64,000 bases of DNA, taken from positions 63,105 through 127,104 of the forward strand of contig JAAVID010000003.1 of NCBI GenBank assembly GCA_014799395.1, given 5' to 3'. This document shows, one piece after another, positions 1 through 47,358 of this stretch (positions are counted from its first letter, which is position 1; every line of letters starts with the position of its first letter). The notes beneath the pieces are model-generated. The model ran no database searches. It was not told where the DNA came from and saw only the letters and a list, made by a program, of their open reading frames with translations. This stretch comes from Oscillospiraceae bacterium (lineage in GTDB: Bacteria; Bacillota; Clostridia; Oscillospirales; Ruminococcaceae). The translations under genes and the position numbers were made by a program.

Positions 1-213
1 AAGCCCTCTGTTAGCCCACTGTATCATCAGAGTGTGACCGTTCCCCAAATCAAACCACCGTTTCCTTTGAGGATCATTCAAATATTCTTGCTCTGCTGAA
101 TTGAAGTCCTTTAAGAACGCCTCCCACTCGGCATTGCGCTTTATTTGGCGTTCTCTTTCTTCATTGCAATACTTTTTTATTTCTTCAAGCTCTTCAAGTT
201 CTTCTGTTGTCAT
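1..213 (-). CDS. Hypothetical phage protein, runs off window (MTTEELEELEEIKKYCNEE...)
   Basis: GGAGG RBS before ATG at 213; open frame to window edge; translated by hand. Confidence 0.6.
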   Translation of the reverse strand, partial: MTTEELEELEEIKKYCNEERERQIKRNAEWEAFLKDFNSAEQEYLNDPQRKRWFDLGNGHTLMIQWANRGL

Positions 214-268
214 TGCTTTTTTACCTCCAATATTAGGGCGGCGGTGCGCCGCCCGTTTATCCTTCTTA

Positions 269-436
269 TTACTTGCTAAAAACCTCGTTGTACCATCTCT
301 GACAGTCGCTCCAGCTCATTTTGATAGAGCCCGTAAGTCTTGCCTTTATCTGCATTTCTTTGTTCTCTGCCTTAATAATGCCGCGCGCAATCTGATCTTC
401 TACGCAAGCTGTAATCATTTCTTTTCTTGTCATCAT
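269..436 (-). CDS. Small hypothetical protein, 55 aa (MMTRKEMITACVEDQIARG...)
   Basis: AGGAGG RBS, ATG, stop at 269; below ORF-track cutoff. Confidence 0.65.
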   Translation of the reverse strand: MMTRKEMITACVEDQIARGIIKAENKEMQIKARLTGSIKMSWSDCQRWYNEVFSK

Positions 437-524: not shown

Positions 525-558
525 AAAATCGTCCCCGCAGAATTACGGGGGCGATTTT
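525..558. terminator. Bidirectional intrinsic terminator after the six-gene cassette
   Basis: aaaatcgtccccg...cgggggcgatttt inverted repeat with A/T tails. Confidence 0.75.
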
Positions 559-615: not shown

Positions 616-1167
616 TCAAACCTTTTCGGCTTTTTTCTTGTACTTCTTGTGCAGCTTGCTCTGCTGTTCCTGAATAAACTCGATTGAGAAATCGACGGAT
701 TTCAAGGTGAGCAGCATACGCTCGGCGCGCTTGAGCTCTTCCTCGGTTTCGCAAAGCCGCTCGCTGATCTCGCATACAGCCGCGTAATCGCCGAGCTCGC
801 CGAGTTCCTTTACAGCCTCATTCAGGAACGCGCAAACACTGCGTTCCCACTCGACCCACTTTTCAAATCCCGTCTTAACGCCCTTTTTGACGTCGGCGGA
901 AGTGACCTCGCTGCGCTTGTAGCCGTACCAGTCTTTCGGGATCGCTCTCGAGTACTCTCCGCTTTCGGGGAGCAGTTTCTGATAGCGGTTCATATAGTAA
1001 CCGTGAAGTTTGCGGTTACACTCGCTCTCGCATTTGCAGTGATATTCGTGCAGGCGCTTGTAGCCGTGAAGGTTCAGAAAATCAAAATACTGCACCATGT
1101 CGTTATGGAACATTATACCGTTAAGGTAGGCATTGGCGATTTTGGAAAATATTTCCTCACAAGTCAT
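616..1167 (-). CDS. Ferritin-like four-helix-bundle protein
   Basis: Helical, with spaced E/H ligand-like residues (GIMFH, RLHEYH..E, WVEWE, ETEEEL). Confidence 0.6.
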   Translation of the reverse strand: MTCEEIFSKIANAYLNGIMFHNDMVQYFDFLNLHGYKRLHEYHCKCESECNRKLHGYYMNRYQKLLPESGEYSRAIPKDWYGYKRSEVTSADVKKGVKTGFEKWVEWERSVCAFLNEAVKELGELGDYAAVCEISERLCETEEELKRAERMLLTLKSVDFSIEFIQEQQSKLHKKYKKKAEKV

Positions 1168-1179
1168 AGGCGACCTCCG

Positions 1180-1584
1180 TTATACCTTGGTCACGACAAC
1201 GCCGATATTATTTACAGTCGCCTCCGCTTCGGTCAAAACGAACGTCAGCGTTGAAGAACTGTTGCAGCACTGAAGACGTACAAGCGCGGGAATAGAGAGA
1301 TTGACCGCCGTATCCGCCGCCGCAACGGTCGCCGAGGCGGTCGCTCCGGGAATCGCCACACCGTCGCAGAGCAGCGAAACGGTGACAGTTCCCGCCGCCG
1401 TCGGAGTAAGCGTTATAGACGCGTCTACATCATAGTAGCCCGAGCCGCTCATTATGATACCGTTACCCGAGAGGTTGATATTGTTTCCGAAACGGCGGAT
1501 AATGGTGCCGAGAGGGATTGTACTGCCGACCGCGACAGTCGTCGCAGTGGCATTTGCCGTATAGATAGCAGATTTACAAGACAT
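1180..1584 (-). CDS. BclA C-terminal/C1q-like beta-sandwich protein
   Basis: Beta-rich Thr/Ala/Val pattern; GTIIRRFG..INLSGNGI...GYYDVDASIT. Confidence 0.55.
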   Translation of the reverse strand: MSCKSAIYTANATATTVAVGSTIPLGTIIRRFGNNINLSGNGIIMSGSGYYDVDASITLTPTAAGTVTVSLLCDGVAIPGATASATVAAADTAVNLSIPALVRLQCCNSSSTLTFVLTEAEATVNNIGVVVTKV

Positions 1585-1665
1585 ATTATCATTTCCTTTC
1601 TTAACAAGAACGGCGGAGACTTCTGCCCCCGCCGTTGAGTTTTAATACCCGGTCGAGATCAGACC

Positions 1666-2316
1666 TTAGATGTTGGCAAAGCCGACGTTATTGCCGTTGC
1701 AGCAACTGTTGCAAAACGGGCTTGTACCTGCGTTATACGACATCGAATTGGGATAACGTACTACGCCGCACAGAGCGCTCTGGAGCTGGAGCTGATTGAT
1801 CTGGTTCTGCATCTGATTGATGCGGTCGTCCTTCATCTCCATACGCAGCCCGCAAATCGCGTCAAGAACCTTCTGGTTGCTTGCTACCGTAGTAGCGTTG
1901 ATCGATGCGGTATTCTGCGCTGCCTCGTAGCGTACCGCGTCAATATTGCGGTTTACCTCGCAGCAGCACTGCGATACCAGCGCCTCGATAGTGTTGAAGT
2001 TGCGGAGCGTCTCGTAACCGAGGTTACAAATGCCGTTGGAGAGCGTCATTGTCTGGTTCTGCTGCTGATCGTTCAGGCGACCAACCGCATTCTCCAGATT
2101 GTTGAAGTTCATGGCATTGCAGAGAGCGCTTTCGGTAACAACGTCCTGTCTGTTGTTACCACCGCCGAACCAACCGCCATTTCCGGTAAACAGTCCTCCA
2201 AGCAAAAGACCCCAGACAATACCGTTGTCTCCGAACATACCACCATAGCCATTTCCGTAGTTGTAACCGTTTCTGCCGGTGACCAAAGCAACATCGCTTG
2301 CCGATAATGCGTCCAT
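1666..2316 (-). CDS. Gly/Asn/Cys-rich protein (CCC motif, coiled coil, Cys-rich tail)
   Basis: Gly-rich hydrophobic N-terminus, QCCCE, NQINQLQLQ heptads, PFCNSCCNG tail; RBS supports ATG at 2316. Confidence 0.8.
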   Translation of the reverse strand: MDALSASDVALVTGRNGYNYGNGYGGMFGDNGIVWGLLLGGLFTGNGGWFGGGNNRQDVVTESALCNAMNFNNLENAVGRLNDQQQNQTMTLSNGICNLGYETLRNFNTIEALVSQCCCEVNRNIDAVRYEAAQNTASINATTVASNQKVLDAICGLRMEMKDDRINQMQNQINQLQLQSALCGVVRYPNSMSYNAGTSPFCNSCCNGNNVGFANI

Positions 2317-2384
2317 AAAGAAACACATCCTTTCAAAGATTTTTTATAATCAATCTTTGTGCGCACAAAAGATGGATTTCTTGG

Positions 2385-2681
2385 TTAATTAAAAGCAGCT
2401 ACTATAGCATCCGGGTCAACACCGTGCTGCCGTGCCGTCTGATAAAACAGCTCCTTCAGTGACATTCCAGAACTGTTCGCCGTTTGCATAAACTGTGCCA
2501 TTTGCGGATTATGCTGTGAAAGCATATTCATTACCGCCTGAGGATCGCGGCTATCATTTATCATGCTCGCCATTTTTTTGATCCTTTCAACCAATGTTCG
2601 GTCAATTGCGGGCTGTGTTGCCTGTTGAGCCTGCCGCTGCGGCTGTTGGTTGTTCACAATTTGCTGATACAGGCTGTTCAT
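2385..2681 (-). CDS. Gln/Met-rich small helical protein
   Basis: ORF track; RBS GGAAAGGAG; DPQAVMNML..NPQM..LFYQTARQHGVDP. Confidence 0.8.
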   Translation of the reverse strand: MNSLYQQIVNNQQPQRQAQQATQPAIDRTLVERIKKMASMINDSRDPQAVMNMLSQHNPQMAQFMQTANSSGMSLKELFYQTARQHGVDPDAIVAAFN

Positions 2682-2970
2682 TGTTCGCGCTCCTTTCCTC
2701 GATCAACGCTTTTAGTGCGTTGAATTCTTCGCGGCTTACAAAATTGGACATGTCAATATTCGCTGCCGGCTTTTCCTGCGGAACTATTTCCGTGTAGCGG
2801 AATGTCCGAAGCGTATACATACCAACGTTATCGCATATCTTGATGTAAAATATGCCCTCGTTTTCTCTGTCCATAAGAACGGCGTTTGTGTTCGGCATAA
2901 GCGGATACGCGTTTGCTCCCGCTATACCCTGCACCCAGTTGATGCCGCCCTGCTGCGGGTAATAATTCAT
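2602..2970 (-). CDS. Hypothetical cassette protein (MNYYPQQGGINWVQG...)
   Basis: GGGGTGAG RBS before ATG 2970; overlaps the next gene by 80 nt. Confidence 0.8.
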   Translation of the reverse strand: MNYYPQQGGINWVQGIAGANAYPLMPNTNAVLMDRENEGIFYIKICDNVGMYTLRTFRYTEIVPQEKPAANIDMSNFVSREEFNALKALIEERSANNEQPVSANCEQPTAAAAGSTGNTARN

Positions 2971-3069
2971 ATTCTCACCCCTCGAGTGTTTCATTTGATA
3001 ATCCCATTATAACGCAAAAAGAGGGCTCCCAACATGTGGGAAACCCTCTTAAATAATGCTTATATTCTG

Positions 3070-3279
3070 TTAGAAATCTGCTTTAATTCTGCGGATTTTC
3101 TTCCTTACGCTTTTCGAGAGCGCGTTTACCTTGCTTTCGCTCCAGAATTTTGCCGTTCCGATCTGGACGTGCGTTTTGTACTTTGCGCGCTCGTTGAAAT
3201 AGAAAAGCTCATCGGGCGTGAAATTGCACATCTCGCGGAACATATCAAGCTCGGGTTTGGTGAGTTCGTATATCTTCAT
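3070..3279 (-). CDS. Small LuxR/GerE- or sigma70-region-4-like HTH regulator
   Basis: 69 aa; FTPDE..YF..RAK.KTHVQI...WSESKVNALSKSVRKKI matches the stand-alone LuxR-type HTH layout. Confidence 0.65.
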   Translation of the reverse strand: MKIYELTKPELDMFREMCNFTPDELFYFNERAKYKTHVQIGTAKFWSESKVNALSKSVRKKIRRIKADF

Positions 3280-3286
3280 TGTGCGC

Positions 3287-4570
3287 TCACCCCTGAACGT
3301 CCTCGGCGTTTACCCAGCCGTACACAGTACAGCCTCCGCCCTCGTTGACAAGGTGAATAGGGTGCGCCGCGCCGTCAACAATGCGCGTGATCTTGGCTTT
3401 GCCGGGCTTGCACGCCGTTCCGCGCGTGGCGGTCGAGCCTGCATAGTGGGTTGTTCCCGTGAAGTTTACGGTATCGCCGACCTTTAACGCCGTAGGAGTA
3501 CTCGCCGTTGTGGGCGGCAGGATAAAGCCTTGGAACTTATACGCTCCAAAGTTGTAGCCGTCGCTTTTCTTGACGGTCGTTGTATAAAAGCGGCTGCCGC
3601 CGTAGGCGCTGTTTGAGGTCACGATATCGCCGTTAGACAATATCTGCTCTACGATTGCAACATGACCCGCGCCGTCGGCTTCGTTGCCGACAACGCCCTT
3701 GCTCCAGCAGATAACCGCACCGAGCGCGGGGATTTGCGAACGCTTATAGCCGTCCGCGGTATTGCCGTACCACATCTCGGCGTTGTTCTTACTTAATTTC
3801 GGCTTCTCGCCGATTATTTCGTAAAAACGCCCCCATGCGTAGCCTACGCAGTTCGGCAGCACCGAGCCGCCGTTGATCTCGATGCAGTCATTCAATCCGC
3901 CTTTGGTCGACTTTATCCAGTGCTTGTCCGCAGCGGACGGCGCTGTCAGGCGCGGAGAGAATTTCGCGCTCGCAGTACCGCTTGTCGTGCTGACAGTACC
4001 ATAAGATTTGACCTTATCCCTAAACCAGTTCATATCCTTCCCGAACTTGGAAAGCCAGTTCTCGGGATCGCCGTGATTACTTGCGTAACCGCGAGCGCAA
4101 GCCTCTTTGTGGGAAACAATATTCTCGAGCTTGATCGACGGATAAGTCTGCATAAGCTCCGCGCAGAACTGCGCCGCCAGATCGAACGCCGCCTCAAAAT
4201 AAGACTTGTCCGTAAGCCCGTCCTCGCAGATCTCAAACTGAATATGTGTATCATTATAGCTGCCGTTTTTGCCCGGGCCGCAGCCCCAGCAACGCATATT
4301 AAACGGAAGCACCTGCGCGAGAGCGACCTTGCCGCTTTTGTCTTTTCCGATCGCCGCGTGAGGTATTCCGTTCTTCTCCTGCTCCTCGACCGTGCCTGTA
4401 CCCCAATAATTTTTGTAAATATTCTCGCCGAGCTGCGCGGGAGAATTTACATAGCGTTTAAGATTGGGATTGTTCGCGCCCGTGCTATGTACGACAATAC
4501 CCGACGGCGAGATCGTTTTCCCCGCCTTGTAGCACTCGCTCCATGTTGCATATGCCTTGATGATCTCCAT
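3287..4570 (-). CDS. Endolysin: amidase_2 + CHAP + C-terminal cell-wall-binding domain
   Basis: IVVHSTG, HIQFEICED, SHKE..HGDP amidase motifs; NCVGYAWGRF..GHVAIVE CHAP motifs. Confidence 0.92.
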   Translation of the reverse strand: MEIIKAYATWSECYKAGKTISPSGIVVHSTGANNPNLKRYVNSPAQLGENIYKNYWGTGTVEEQEKNGIPHAAIGKDKSGKVALAQVLPFNMRCWGCGPGKNGSYNDTHIQFEICEDGLTDKSYFEAAFDLAAQFCAELMQTYPSIKLENIVSHKEACARGYASNHGDPENWLSKFGKDMNWFRDKVKSYGTVSTTSGTASAKFSPRLTAPSAADKHWIKSTKGGLNDCIEINGGSVLPNCVGYAWGRFYEIIGEKPKLSKNNAEMWYGNTADGYKRSQIPALGAVICWSKGVVGNEADGAGHVAIVEQILSNGDIVTSNSAYGGSRFYTTTVKKSDGYNFGAYKFQGFILPPTTASTPTALKVGDTVNFTGTTHYAGSTATRGTACKPGKAKITRIVDGAAHPIHLVNEGGGCTVYGWVNAEDVQG

Positions 4571-4583
4571 AAAATCACACTCC

Positions 4584-4889
4584 TTACGAAATAATGATAC
4601 CTTCGCTGTTAAGCTGCTTGACTGCCGCTTCGATAGCCGCGTTCACACTGTCTGTGTCTACGGTAAAACCATTCTTGGCGAGAAAATCAAGCACATACTG
4701 TTTCTTGTCCGCGCCTTTGCCCGAGCCTTTATAGATCTGTTCCGCTGCGGAAACGGCGATCTTTACCCATGCGACAAGCTCCTCGCGCTGCTGTGCGGTG
4801 GTCTTGGACTTTATCCACGGGATAAGAAACGTGCTCACAATAGCCGCGATCAGTGCGATAACGGCGTTTATAATTACTGTAATGTTCAT
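4584..4889 (-). CDS. Holin (LL-H-like)
   Basis: N-terminal TM helix, AVSAAEQ..G.G..KK.YV, IEAAV pattern; next to endolysin. Confidence 0.8.
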   Translation of the reverse strand: MNITVIINAVIALIAAIVSTFLIPWIKSKTTAQQREELVAWVKIAVSAAEQIYKGSGKGADKKQYVLDFLAKNGFTVDTDSVNAAIEAAVKQLNSEGIIIS

Positions 4890-4899
4890 TTGATACCTC

Positions 4900-5298
4900 C
4901 TATATATTGTTTATGTTGTTTAAATCAACGGAAATCCCCTCTGTTTCCTCGGGGTTGTCCTTTTTGATTTTAACAATATTCTCCGCTTTTGCTTTCCAAC
5001 AATAAAAGCCTATCGCGGCGGCTGTGGGCGTTCCTATGTATGCCAATAATACGCCGAGCTGCGAAAAGTCAATCAACGATACTTTCACGCCGATAAAAAC
5101 GCCCACAAAATAGGTCAACAAAACAAATGTAAGCACAATTTTTGAAAATTCGAGCTTACGCGGGGATTTTAATTTATTTACGGCGGTCTGCTTCCCCTGC
5201 TTTTTGTTTCCCGAATTGGCGATCAAAAACATAATAAGCACCGCCGCCAAGCCGCCAATAACAAGCGCCATAAGCGCTATGATAATATATAACGCCAT
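4900..5298 (-). CDS. Membrane protein in lysis module
   Basis: Three hydrophobic segments; FYCWKAKAEN motif. Confidence 0.7.
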   Translation of the reverse strand: MALYIIIALMALVIGGLAAVLIMFLIANSGNKKQGKQTAVNKLKSPRKLEFSKIVLTFVLLTYFVGVFIGVKVSLIDFSQLGVLLAYIGTPTAAAIGFYCWKAKAENIVKIKKDNPEETEGISVDLNNINNI

Positions 5299-5311
5299 TT
5301 CAAACGCCTCC

Positions 5312-5542
5312 TTAATGTCCTTTGTGATACTGCTTGAGCTCGTTGACATCCTTTTCGATGTCGTCAAGGCGCTGTTCCACAAGCGGCATTCTCCGCGCGA
5401 ATTTGTTGTGTTCCTCGACCTTTTTTTCGAGCTGCTCGATACGGTACGCCGTCAGCTTTGACGACACCACGATACCGCCCAGAGAGCCGCCGAGCGTTCC
5501 GATAAGCGATAATACCGCAACTATGATCGCTGTGAAGTCCAT
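5312..5542 (-). CDS. Holin-like TM + coiled-coil protein
   Basis: N-terminal TM then YRIEQLEKKVEEHN. Confidence 0.7.
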   Translation of the reverse strand: MDFTAIIVAVLSLIGTLGGSLGGIVVSSKLTAYRIEQLEKKVEEHNKFARRMPLVEQRLDDIEKDVNELKQYHKGH

Positions 5543-5556
5543 TCCATCACCCCCAC

Positions 5557-6288
5557 TCAAATATGAATATGCTCGATATCAAACGATTTCACGGGGACAG
5601 CGAACATAGACGGCTTAGTGGTTACGGTATTATTCGCCCCCGCTTTTAAAGTCGAAAAGCCGACATATTTTTTATCCCCGTGCAAAAGCTCGATATAATG
5701 TACGCGGTTAGGAACGGACTGCGCAAAGTACAAAGACTTCGGCAGAACCGCGAGATTTGTTTTAGGCTGTTTGCCAAAGCACCACGGAGCGCCCACGCTT
5801 TCCAATACATTTGGAAACATTCGGGAAGCCGTGGCGGTGTCGTCAAGCAGAGTTGCGGGAGACTCGGCGGTATTCGTGTTGACCATACCCCAGATGATGT
5901 ATTCGCTTCCGTCCTCGTATTTTCCCCATATCACATTAAATCCGTATGACGTTTCGTTAGTAACATCCGTTCTGAAACCTAATGCAACAGTGCCGCGGTC
6001 TTCGGCTTCCAGAATATCAATGAAACTATATCCCGAGCCAATGTTCCACACCTGGCTTAATGCCGTGTATGTCGTTTTGCTGTTACCGACTTTTATTGTC
6101 TCGGCAGATGAGTTTGCTGTGGGCGCAAATTCAAAAAACATCTCACCGTGCGTAAAGCGGGCAGTTTTTCCATCGTCGTCAAACGTATACTCCCATTCGC
6201 TTCCAAGCTCATCCGCCAGCCTGTCAAAAAGCGGTTTTGCGGCAGAGATGCCACTGCCCGATGATGGCTTAAATTCCAAAGTTTTCAT
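5557..6288 (-). CDS. Hypothetical distal tail / receptor-binding candidate
   Basis: Last gene of tail module, beta-rich. Confidence 0.5.
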   Translation of the reverse strand: MKTLEFKPSSGSGISAAKPLFDRLADELGSEWEYTFDDDGKTARFTHGEMFFEFAPTANSSAETIKVGNSKTTYTALSQVWNIGSGYSFIDILEAEDRGTVALGFRTDVTNETSYGFNVIWGKYEDGSEYIIWGMVNTNTAESPATLLDDTATASRMFPNVLESVGAPWCFGKQPKTNLAVLPKSLYFAQSVPNRVHYIELLHGDKKYVGFSTLKAGANNTVTTKPSMFAVPVKSFDIEHIHI

Positions 6289-44588: not shown

Positions 44589-46172
44589 ATGGAACGCTAC
44601 GCAATGTACCTCCGCAAATCCCGAGCCGATCTGGACGCGGAGGCTCACGGCGAGGGCGAAACCCTCGCCCGGCACAAAGCCGCTTTGCTTGCATTAGCAA
44701 AGCGGCTGAATTTAACGGTCTCGGAAATATATCAGGAGATCGTATCAGGTGAAACAATAGCCGCTCGTCCGATGATGCAGCAGCTCCTCCAGGAGGTCAG
44801 TGAAGGAAAATGGACGGGAGTTATCGTAATGGAAGTTGAACGTCTCGCCCGCGGTGATACTATGGACCAGGGTTTTGTTTCGCAGACATTCAAATACAGT
44901 GGAACGAAAATCATCACACCGCTGAAAATATACGATCCGTCCAACGAATTCGACGAGGAATATTTTGAATTCGGTCTGTTTATGAGCCGCCGCGAATATG
45001 TCACTACAAACCGCCGCCTACAACGCGGACGCGCCGCCTCTGCCCGTGAGGGTAAATTTGTAGGAAGTATCGCTCCGTTTGGATATAAGCGCAAAAAAAT
45101 CGAAAACGACAAGGGATATACTCTTGAAATAGTTCCGGAGCAAGCGGAGATCATCAAAATGATTTTTGACTTCTACGTCAACGGTACAGATGTTAACGGC
45201 GAACACAAGCGACTTGGTTTTCAAGCAATCGCACGCAAGCTCAACGAGCTGAAAATTCCGCCAATACGTCACGACTATTGGCAAAAGGAATCCATCAAAG
45301 ATATCATAACAAATCCCACATATGCCGGAATGATACGCTGGGGATACCGCAAAGTAAAGAAAACGGTCACTCCGCAGGGAAAGAAAACGTCGCGCCCGAT
45401 AACATTGGACGATAATTGCATCATAGCCAAAGGGTTACATGAGGCTATAATTCCGAAAGATATATTCGACAGAGCTCAGGAATTTCTTGCAGAACAGCCG
45501 TCACCACCGGTCGGATATAAAAGCGAGATTAAAAATCCTCTGTGCAGTCTTGTCATTTGTGCGAAATGCGGTCGAAAAATGGTGCTAAGGCGCGGCACGG
45601 ACAAAAAGCCGGATTACATTGTATGTCACGCGCGCTCTTGTACGGTAGTATCAACTCCGCTTTATTTGGTTGAAGATCGTGTGCTTAATATTTTAAAACA
45701 ATGGGCGAATGACTATGAAGTAATCTCAAAGAATATGGATCTACAATTCGGAGCCAATATTGCCGATTATACGACGGTCAGCGAAAATCTTCAACAAGAG
45801 TTAAACGTTCTTGAACGCCAACAGCGCACGATATATGACCTTGTCGAACGCGGATTGTACACCGACGAGGAATTTAAAAAACGAATTACCGAAATCAAAC
45901 AGCGCATAGAAAATGCCAAAAACGGCTTAAAAAAGCTTGGTCTCGATAGAGAAATAGTGGAGAGAAGAAAAAAAGCAATTGAAGAATTCGCTCCAAAGGT
46001 CGAACATATCCTTGAGATATACTCCACTCGAACGTCTGCCGCCGCCAAAAACGAGATACTGAAAGAGGTACTTGAACGTGTTGTATATGATAAAGAAAAA
46101 AGCGGCGCGCTCAAGGGCTGTTCAGCAGATGATTTTACGCTGATTGCATATCCCAAATTGCCAAAACTATGA
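44589..46172 (+). CDS. Large serine recombinase (prophage integrase)
   Basis: YLRKS catalytic Ser, ERLARGD, recombinase domain, Zn ribbon CAKCG..C, coiled coil. Confidence 0.96.
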   Translation: MERYAMYLRKSRADLDAEAHGEGETLARHKAALLALAKRLNLTVSEIYQEIVSGETIAARPMMQQLLQEVSEGKWTGVIVMEVERLARGDTMDQGFVSQTFKYSGTKIITPLKIYDPSNEFDEEYFEFGLFMSRREYVTTNRRLQRGRAASAREGKFVGSIAPFGYKRKKIENDKGYTLEIVPEQAEIIKMIFDFYVNGTDVNGEHKRLGFQAIARKLNELKIPPIRHDYWQKESIKDIITNPTYAGMIRWGYRKVKKTVTPQGKKTSRPITLDDNCIIAKGLHEAIIPKDIFDRAQEFLAEQPSPPVGYKSEIKNPLCSLVICAKCGRKMVLRRGTDKKPDYIVCHARSCTVVSTPLYLVEDRVLNILKQWANDYEVISKNMDLQFGANIADYTTVSENLQQELNVLERQQRTIYDLVERGLYTDEEFKKRITEIKQRIENAKNGLKKLGLDREIVERRKKAIEEFAPKVEHILEIYSTRTSAAAKNEILKEVLERVVYDKEKSGALKGCSADDFTLIAYPKLPKL

Positions 46173-46199: not shown

Positions 46200-46250
46200 T
46201 CTATAGATGTTAACGTGTGTGTTCTGTTTCATCGGCGCACTCTCCGCTGA
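46200..46250. other. Hybrid att site (prophage right junction) inside asnB
   Basis: asnB homology ends after GAT GAA (46228-46233); next codons ETEHTR* are phage-derived. Confidence 0.8.
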
Positions 46251-47358
46251 GCGCCACGGGAAAGCCCGCGTTCTTGATCTCGCGGCAGAACAGCCACAGC
46301 GAGCTGTCAACGTCCGCCATTCCGGGGAGATCGCGCGCGTACGTCGAATCGTTCAGCGCCTCGGCGAGCGCGGGAGTATCCAGCACGACATTGGTGTGCT
46401 CCGAGCCGATAAACCTTGCCATTTCCTCTACATACGGCGCGTCCTCGTCGGGCTGAAACGCGCTTGCCTTGAAGTTCTCGCGGTTGTTCTTGTAATCTAT
46501 CGAAAACGTATGCAGGCGCTCGCCGCGCTTGGCGAATTCCGCCGCCGCTATCGCAGAGATGACCGAGCTGTCCAGCCCTCCCGACAGGAACGTACACAGC
46601 GGCACGTCGCTTACGAGCTGACGTTTCACAGCGTCGAAAATAAGCTCGCGGACGCGGCTCGCGGTCTCGGTGAAGCTCTCGTTGTGCGGGGAAGCCGTCA
46701 GTTTCCAGTAGCGCTTTACGGTCATTCCTTTGCGCGAGAACTCGGCGCAGTGCGCCGCGGGAATGTCGTGTATATCGCGGAACACGCCGCCGCCGACTAT
46801 CCGCGCGGGACCTATAAGCATTATCTCCGCCGCGCCCTCCTCGGTTATCACGGGCTTGACCCCGGGGTGCTTCAAAAGCGCCTTTATCTCGCTCGCGAAC
46901 ACCAGACCGTTCTCCGTTTCCGCGTAGAACAGCGGCTTTACGCCTATCCTGTCGCGGGCGAGGAACAGCGTCTGTTCGCTCCTGTTCCAGACCGCAAACG
47001 CGAAGATGCCGTTGAACATTTCAAGACACTTCTCGCCGTACTCGGCGTAGGCTTTCAGCACCACCTCGGTATCGGAATGTCCGAGGAAACGGTAACCGCG
47101 CTTTTCGAGCCCTCCGCGTATCTCCGTGGTGTTGTACAGCTCGCCGTTGTAGACGAGCGTGAGGTCTCCGAAGGTCATGGGCTGAGCGCCGTTTTCGGGG
47201 TCGATTACGATAAGCCGCCTGTGCGCGAGACAGACGTGCTCATGCTCGAAAAATCCGTCCGCGTCGGGTCCGCGCGGCGTAAGCGCACGGCTCATCTCGC
47301 GTATTATTTCGTTATTGATCTGCGTTCTGAAATTGATCTCTCCTGCAATTCCGCACAT
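46210..47358 (-). pseudogene. asnB: 5' part of glutamine-hydrolysing asparagine synthetase (AsnO-like), interrupted by prophage
   Basis: MCGIAG, RGPD, HRRL, LSGGLDSS, ARDLPGMADVDSSL, ends at SGECADE; full-length enzymes are ~600 aa. Confidence 0.92.

Follow-up and report, generated by a model that had tools for sequence, protein, structure and literature searches.

The window analysed here is a 64,000-nucleotide (nt) stretch of DNA from an Oscillospiraceae bacterium (GenBank assembly GCA_014799395.1, contig JAAVID010000003.1, positions 63,105 to 127,104). It contains, behind a phage lysin gene, a cassette of six genes, designated g1 to g6. This cassette is a mobile accessory unit of fixed gene order, carried by tailed phages of anaerobes, thousands of gut phages among them, and it is not a spore module. 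An earlier reading of the sequence alone, made without database searches (the sequence-only reading), had proposed that the six genes form a tightly coupled, lysogen-expressed module that alters the spore surface. The co-oriented open reading frames (ORFs) on which that proposal was built are all present on the minus strand in the ORF list of the window, as follows.

g1: 3070-3279, minus strand; 69 aa; stand-alone protein of a sigma-70 region-4/GerE-type helix-turn-helix (HTH) family
g2: 2602-2994, minus strand; 130 aa; Y/Q/P-rich N-terminus, small alpha/beta core and helix
g3: 2385-2681, minus strand; 98 aa; Q/M-rich helical protein
g4: 1666-2328, minus strand; 220 aa; Gly-rich hydrophobic segment, long helix, CCC, Cys/Gly tail
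g5: 1180-1584, minus strand; 134 aa; stand-alone BclA-C-terminal/C1q-TNF-like protein
g6: 616-1167, minus strand; 183 aa; ferritin-like four-helix-bundle protein with a non-canonical metal site

Gene order and distribution of the cassette

Loci surrounding relatives of g4 were gathered from species genomes (80) and viral contigs (80), together with phage records and contigs. Those in which g4 was identified by iterative searches number 167, and they collapse to 73 representatives at 75% g4 identity. It is apparent that the order g1>g2>g3>g4>g5>g6, on one strand, is constant across the 167 loci, and that it holds also across the 73 representatives, which differ by more than 25% in g4. The genes are therefore not chance ORFs. 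Besides g4, the genes found in these loci were g2 (158/167), g5 (135/167), g3 (127/167), g1 (116/167, as a jackhmmer family) and g6 (27/167), the last being the optional final gene of the cassette. The sequence-only reading had mentioned similar blocks in phages of gut Clostridia, where they pass as hypothetical proteins, and the blocks do recur in gut phages with their order kept.

The carriers are gut and rumen phages of sipho-, podo- and myo-type, with hosts belonging to the Clostridia, Erysipelotrichia, Negativicutes and Coriobacteriia. Upstream of the cassette are genes for endolysins, holins, or tail or connector proteins; downstream are integrases, host genes or genes encoding DUF7841. 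Siphovirus prophages are among the carriers. The cassette was also found in a podovirus that is recognisable as phi29-like from its domains (Phi29_MCP, gp9-type tail and GP10 connector). There, g2-g3-g4-g5-g6 form part of the late structural operon, with the connector/collar genes on one side and the lysis and collagen-fibre genes on the other. Plaque-isolated phages of Clostridium perfringens carry g1, g2, g3, g4, g6 and, in position 5, a different protein termed g5' (described below), and have them kilobases away from their lysis genes. CPD1 and XP41-N3 are examples of such carriers. In XP41-N3, all of the genes are on one strand, no integrase is annotated, and no similarity was detected to the two integrase types used as queries. 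XP41-N3 is deliberately not termed virulent here; C. perfringens carries an episomal prophage, PhiSM101 (PMC3442830).

A tblastn search of 50,697 phage records with a single g4 sequence matched only phages of C. perfringens and of gut metagenomes. Among 401 genomes sampled from the host's phylum, g4 was present only in the window's own genome, and a search against plasmids gave no g4 match. A scan of viral contigs with a single protein returned nothing, and an alignment was needed as the query to find relatives. Given searches of this limited sensitivity, the distribution is consistent with strict anaerobes being the hosts of the phages that carry the cassette.

Restriction of the cassette to spore-forming hosts would be expected of a spore-coat or exosporium conversion module expressed by the lysogen. 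Using the presence of Spo0A_C and SpoIVA in 50 carrier genomes as a proxy for sporulation, it was found that 19 of the genomes lack Spo0A_C and that 17 lack both Spo0A and SpoIVA. Binning of metagenome-assembled genomes is a concern for phage-sized contigs, but three chromosomal cases are robust against it. In Collinsella (289-kb contig, locus G+C content 63%), Bulleidia (120-kb contig) and Phascolarctobacterium (545-kb contig), the cassette is located at a prophage end. Baseplate, endolysin or LPD38 genes lie upstream, and genes for an ABC-F ATPase, an ABC transporter with its binding protein, or EF-G lie downstream. These non-sporulating hosts carry the cassette in chromosomal prophages, beside housekeeping genes, and the cassette is therefore not specific to spore-formers. 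Of the three outcomes that the sequence-only reading had named as refuting it, the one concerning non-sporulating hosts is borne out.

Several features of the window are, of course, those expected of a spore module. The host is a spore-former, since both Spo0A and SpoIVA are encoded in its genome (2.76 Mb, 97.8% complete), and the prophage interrupts an asparagine synthase gene by means of a serine recombinase. In addition, g5 resembles the C-terminal domain (CTD) of BclA, and the proteins are Cys-rich and devoid of signal peptides, like spore proteins assembled in the mother cell. A terminator and a TATAAT hexamer after g1 give a moron-like layout. Against these points stand the carriers that do not sporulate, the occurrence of the cassette in an integrase-less, plaque-isolated phage and in a podovirus structural operon, and the lack in g5 of a collagen region and an exosporium-targeting N-terminus. 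No evidence of sigma-E or sigma-K promoters turned up, none having been sought. As a general function, the spore-surface role has already been largely refuted and is regarded as very improbable, and nothing here speaks either for or against an added spore effect in this particular host. The alternative offered in the sequence-only reading, a module that builds a particle, is a possible one.

Punctuation of the cassette and the g1 protein

The cassette has terminators on both sides, and the signals identified in and around it are listed below.

T1: 3019-3050, minus strand; terminator-like hairpin of 12 pairs followed by a T-run, directly after g1; fold z-score -2.9
-10 hexamer TATAAT: 3006-3011, minus strand; consensus sequence, 5 nt past the T-run of T1
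T2: 1610-1635, minus strand; 11-bp GC-rich hairpin with a weak U tract, between g4 and g5
T3: 533-550, minus strand; strong intrinsic terminator with T-run closing the cassette; wider stem 525-558

Terminator-like hairpins were counted in same-strand gaps across representative loci. A hairpin with a T-run was observed in the g1-g2 gap of 20 of 27 loci, and a terminator-like hairpin in the g4-g5 gap of 20 of 36 (L009-L168). The frequency in other same-strand gaps was 29/172; it was 3/46 in the g2-g4 and g3-g4 gaps and 0/14 upstream of g1. At loci where g1 is not adjacent to g2, a hairpin preceded g2 in 7 of 19 cases. The fold z-score of T3 is -5.25, and none of 200 shuffled sequences folded as well.

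These results reveal a conserved layout: late unit ... lysin - g1 / T1 / g2 g3 g4 / T2 / g5 (g6) / T3. Genes g2-g6 constitute an insulated unit that ends at a strong terminator and contains a second conserved hairpin before g5. The sequence-only reading had placed a closing terminator at 525-558, which agrees with the stem and T-run found there, and had set the block outside the logic of virion and lysis; the cassette is indeed a separately punctuated, conserved module outside the recognisable virion and lysis genes. Its further claim, that the genes are tightly coupled throughout, does not survive, since T1 separates g1 from g2, T2 separates g4 from g5, and both hairpins are conserved. T2 divides g5 (and g6, where present) from g2-g4, and may serve as an attenuator by which stoichiometry is fixed, or as a stabiliser of the 3' end.

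The g1 gene starts 7 nt past the lysin stop codon, and it can therefore be read as closing the late/lysis transcription unit. Matches to Sigma70_r4 were obtained for 21 of 34 representatives of the g1 family, and matches to GerE for 11 of the 34. A homologue (in locus L003) matches the region-4 end of TIGR02937 at 1.5e-6; the window copy alone gave no Pfam match. On the strength of these family matches g1 is provisionally classified as an HTH protein consisting of sigma region 4 only, in keeping with the stand-alone LuxR/GerE-like HTH of the sequence-only reading. Beyond T1, the TATAAT hexamer may have promoter activity. The only possible -35 element for it is TTGGGA, located in the descending arm of T1 at a spacing of 15 nt, and this is a poor one. 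Boxes resembling a -10 element are found past the T-run in many relatives.

Proteins encoded by the cassette

The g4 protein consists of an acidic N-tail, a Gly-rich hydrophobic segment, a single long helix (residues 67-186) and a disordered Cys/Gly-rich tail (CGVVRYP...C.CC). In the AlphaFold2 (AF2) model the helix is uninterrupted over ~120 residues, a length that spans ~18 nm. Within it, the CCC at residues 121-123 is invariant across 68 aligned sequences. The protein matches phrog_16490 at 2e-11, and its family comprises 3377 clusters at 50% identity; none of the 2136 homologues among 90% clusters has a Pfam domain. Longer homologues (265-304 aa; L059, L073, L076 and L078) contain extra copies of a ~20-aa helical unit, GFxGVDNAxCxLGYQTQQ, and the length of the putative stalk would therefore differ between phages.

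When g5 was compared with Pfam, BclA_C (PF18573) was matched at an E value of 3.6e-7 and 30.5 bits, below the 38-bit cut-off. A 40-sequence profile of the family matched BclA CTD structures in PDB (2z5w, 3twi, 2r6q and 1wck) at 5e-8 to 2e-7 over positions 8-134, followed by cerebellin, C1q, C1q-related factor and TNF ligands. Proteins with the BclA/C1q/TNF fold typically form trimers. The g5 protein begins directly with the beta domain, without collagen GXX repeats, a signal peptide or an exosporium-targeting N-terminus, and its conserved cysteines are those of RxxGC and CC motifs.

In 22 representative loci, including those of the C. perfringens phages, position 5 is filled by g5', an unrelated Cys-rich beta protein of 110-150 aa (for example, L023:7731-8135, and 9614-9991 in L171, the XP41-N3 locus). 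Its motifs are an N-terminal MxCK..C..C and a C-terminal CC, and no link from g5' to Pfam or PDB, or to g5 by hhalign, was detected. F-ENA (DUF4183) was considered as a relative of g5 and set aside, as it is a different family, with no Pfam match.

The single g6 sequence matched Pfam Ferritin at an E value of only 0.23. The family profile matched ferritins in PDB at 3.5e-5 to 4e-4, with residues 3-172 of the query aligned to 7-158 of the chain and all four helices covered. Family invariants are H21, G35, E108 and E144, and H40 is nearly so. The canonical di-iron ferroxidase ligands (among them Glu17, Glu50, His53 and Glu94) are not conserved, in that E17 and H53 of ferritin fall on non-conserved columns of the HMMER alignment. 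No match of g6 to Coat_F or Mn-catalase was obtained, the nearest relatives being classical ferritins. The folds of g5, g5' and g6 rest on sequence profiles, and those of g5 and g6 hold as assignments to families. The BclA-CTD-like protein of the sequence-only reading is thus borne out, the family profile matching at 5e-8 over the full length. Of its ferritin-like protein of coat type, the similarity to ferritin (3.5e-5) stands, and the likeness to CotJC/CotF does not.

A DUF7841 protein is encoded by one of the first two downstream genes in 14 of 127 neighbours scanned (for example, L003:6999-7475), in the slot that g6 occupies in the window, and a rubrerythrin-like gene adjoins the cassette downstream in two loci. 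The last slot of the cassette looks like that of an exchangeable helper.

The likelier start of g2 is the ATG at 2970, behind the ribosome-binding site GAGGGGTGAG. The protein matches phrog_21718 at 1e-14. Its AF2 model has a pLDDT of 83 overall and ~97 in the core (residues 19-66), a small beta-alpha-beta-beta-beta arrangement, and includes a helix at 88-103. A Foldseek comparison of the model with PDB returned nothing significant, only SH2-like noise at E ~0.3, and a comparison with BFVD returned uncharacterised gut-phage proteins only, which derive from metagenomic phage genomes labelled as sipho-, podo- and myovirus. In the family alignment, g3 is characterized by NPxxxM repeats and a ...G(V/I)D... 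helix; it has no meaningful match in Pfam or, by profile search, in PDB. Profile searches of PDB with g2, g3, g4 and g5' produced matches to TALE, M-protein and syntaxin, all of which were rejected as compositional.

Over 80 nt (2602-2681) the beginning of g3 overlaps the 3'-terminal part of g2, in the +1 frame relative to it. Among the 25 representative loci in which the g2/g3 overlap was assessed, all 20 overlaps longer than 4 nt place g3 in that same frame. This constancy may reflect inherited translational coupling; programmed frameshifting was set aside, as the +1 frame may simply be inherited.

Neither transmembrane (TM) segments nor signal peptides were detected in g1, g2, g3 or g6. The hydrophobic maximum of g5 falls in internal strands, and no N-terminal signal was detected there. 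With signal peptides lacking in g2, g3, g5 and g6, the proposed assembly would be put together in the cytoplasm or at the cytoplasmic side of the membrane, with the possible exception of the N-terminus of g4.

The architecture of g4 and g5 could also be that of a fibre associated with the virion, in which a g4 trimer bearing a g5 knob would decorate the head, neck or tail and assist in adsorption or adhesion, g2 and g3 being its chaperones. Models for such a structure are the phi29 head fibres, T4 fibritin, reovirus sigma-1 and the PRD1 P5 spike. A stalk with a jelly-roll knob suits this idea, as do stalks that differ in length through repeats and the lack of signal peptides, which virion proteins do not need. 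The cassette, moreover, adjoins tail, connector and lysis genes and lies inside a structural operon in the phi29-like phage. It moves, however, between unrelated morphotypes with different capsid and tail proteins, which is hard to square with a specific docking site, and it is usually situated behind the late-operon terminator, with a regulator of its own. A conserved hydrophobic Gly-zipper segment and a ferritin-like partner would also be unusual for a fibre, and the literature search yielded no usable virion proteomics of the C. perfringens carriers. On balance, a fibre function is considered unlikely.

Prophage setting, proposed role and known systems

The window begins within a prophage of ~47 kb, the left end of which lies ~0.7 kb before window position 1; the cassette is therefore near one prophage end. 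The sequence-only reading had placed a phage in an asnO-like gene, and the prophage does split an asparagine synthase gene, with a serine recombinase at the junction. The features of this setting are as follows.

Lysin (Amidase_2+CHAP): 3287-4570, minus strand; directly upstream of the cassette
Holin (LLH family): 4584-4889, minus strand; Pfam 5.7e-17
Large serine recombinase: 44589-46172; at the prophage junction, beside the split asparagine synthase gene
Asparagine synthase, N-terminal part: 46210-47358, minus strand; GATase_7 and Asn_synthase positions 2-130
Asparagine synthase, C-terminal part: ~0.7-1.3 kb left of window position 1 (L004 13728-14327); 199-aa ORF, Asn_synthase 186-354 of 354

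Between the cassette terminator and the prophage end/attachment site are three small minus-strand ORFs of 55, 104 and 82 aa (window 1-436, L004 14466-15213), for which no Pfam match was found. Upstream of the LLH holin, at 4900-5560, the lysis region contains two more membrane-protein ORFs, neither with a significant Pfam match. One (160 aa) has several hydrophobic segments, and the other (82 aa) has an N-terminal TM segment followed by a coiled coil, and resembles XhlA.

This setting brings to mind a lysis accessory, in which g4 would join the holin and endolysin at the membrane, serving either as an antiholin or timing device or as a spanin-like disruptor of the envelope, the other proteins being cofactors. 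T4 holin T and Rz are N-terminal TM proteins with a large Cys-bearing helical domain, and the topology of g4 could be likened to that of T4 holin T or of the i-spanin Rz. In the window, as in many relatives, the cassette directly adjoins the holin and lysin genes, and the C-terminal helix of g2 resembles BMFP ('membrane fusogenic'), at an E value (0.064) that is not significant. A complete set of canonical lysis genes (LLH holin and amidase/CHAP lysin) is already there, however, and most of the hosts are monoderm (Bacillota or Coriobacteriia), so that no spanin is needed. No lipoprotein partner was identified, none of the potential partner proteins having a lipobox or signal peptide, and the C. 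perfringens phages keep the cassette at a distance of kilobases from their lysis genes. An accessory function in lysis is accordingly considered distinctly improbable.

The explanation favoured here, put forward tentatively and given slightly less than an even chance, rests on architecture. The cassette would be a g1-gated, very-late accessory unit that builds, in the infected cell, a Cys-linked stalk with a TNF/C1q-like cap. Gating would be accomplished by g1, acting at a promoter without a -35 element or reading through T1, as the gene layout and the fold of g1 suggest, and the cassette would then turn on after the late genes. The g4 protein would then oligomerise into a coiled-coil stalk of ~18 nm, tethered via its Gly-rich hydrophobic N-segment and cross-linked, or bound to metal, at its CCC ring and Cys/Gly tail. 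Disulfides between chains, or metal sites, are suggested by these parts of g4, of which the CCC is invariant, together with the cysteines conserved in g5 and g5'. A trimeric TNF/C1q-like knob, supplied by g5 or, in other phages, by g5', would cap the stalk. Cytoplasmic assembly partners would be provided by g2 and g3, and an optional ferritin-like, metal-binding helper by g6. The assembly may act in the infected cell or after lysis, and its role could lie in the timing or completion of lysis, in exclusion, or in a product released at lysis.

A number of observations weigh against this stalk-and-knob explanation. Both 'very late' and 'g1-gated' are terms that we infer from architecture. The enrichment of -10-like boxes past T1 is modest (10/20 versus 8/29 by a loose pattern), and the cassette of the phi29-like podovirus has neither g1 nor T1, so that gating is not universal. 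The mean pLDDT of the g4 model is just 67. The hydrophobic segment of g4 is weak or marginal in the window copy, with a Kyte-Doolittle (KD) hydropathy of 1.09 as against a family median of 1.65, and charge bias, by the positive-inside rule, does not fix the topology of the protein. Contact between g4 and g5 is itself a proposal. Covariation would have pointed to such a contact; the tail types of g4 do not strictly covary with g5 or g5' (25/6 for CGVVRYP-type tails and 9/11 for P.PAY-type tails).

A broader version of the stalk-and-knob explanation can also be envisaged, and is considered doubtful. Phages of strict anaerobes from several host phyla might share a 'very late' programme, in which a region-4-only protein from the end of the late operon switches on an insulated cassette. 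A stalk-and-knob assembly cross-linked through Cys or metal, with a BclA/C1q/TNF-like knob and a ferritin-like helper, would then be formed in the dying cell. It would take effect at lysis or afterwards, for instance as a matrix that protects released virions, or makes them adhere, on contact with oxygen. The very-late occlusion genes of baculoviruses offer a loose analogy to such a programme.

The cassette represents an undescribed phage function. Searches of NCBIfam and Rfam gave no useful match for it, the PADLOC defence models gave no significant match for g1-g6, g5' or the DUF7841 protein, and literature searches on BclA/prophage/C1q and on DUF7841 found no description of it. The suggestion of the sequence-only reading that the system is undescribed accords with these results, no matching described system having been found. 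That a conserved function of several proteins is so common in gut phages and yet undescribed marks a gap in phage biology, and knockouts in the cultured C. perfringens carriers offer a way to address it. As regards annotation, prophage matches of the 'BclA-like' or 'ferritin-like' kind should not be taken as spore cargo.

The folds themselves are familiar. The g5 family profile resembles the jelly roll of the BclA CTD and C1q-TNF proteins (PF18573; 1WCK, 2Z5W, 3TWI) over its full length. Unlike BclA, g5 is a stand-alone domain of 134 aa, with no collagen repeats or exosporium-targeting N-terminus and with extra conserved cysteines, and its genes are found in phages, some of which have hosts that do not sporulate. 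Across all four helices, the g6 family profile aligns with ferritins of archaea and bacteria (Ferritin/Dps, PF00210; 1S3Q, 1VLG, 5LS9), but the family has a different set of invariant His and Glu residues, the canonical ferroxidase ligands not being conserved, and no similarity of g6 to CotJC/CotF was seen. Like GerE, g1 is a stand-alone HTH protein of ~70 aa (GerE/LuxR, PF00196; sigma-70 region 4, PF04545); it differs from GerE in being phage-encoded, at the end of the late/lysis unit, with a conserved terminator after it and no link to sigma-K or the coat regulon.

Type II membrane TNF ligands, collectins and class A scavenger receptors are built from an anchor at the N-terminus, a trimeric stalk that is helical or collagenous, and a head that is Cys-rich or TNF-like. 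The proposed g4/g5 assembly resembles them in architecture alone; in the cassette the putative stalk (g4) and knob (g5) are separate polypeptides, and g4 has no sequence homology to these proteins. What has not been described is the combination of a region-4 HTH, a C1q/TNF jelly roll and a ferritin-like bundle, together with their fixed order and punctuation.

Morons, or lysogenic-conversion cassettes in the concept of Hendrix and Juhala, are insulated, portable units located between terminators. The present cassette is like them in its insulation between terminators, its position at a prophage end after the lysis genes and its portability. It differs from them in comprising five to six co-inherited genes, in fixed order and with a dedicated regulator. 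Its further occurrence in a non-integrating phage, and within a structural operon, makes it probable that the benefit goes to the phage itself.

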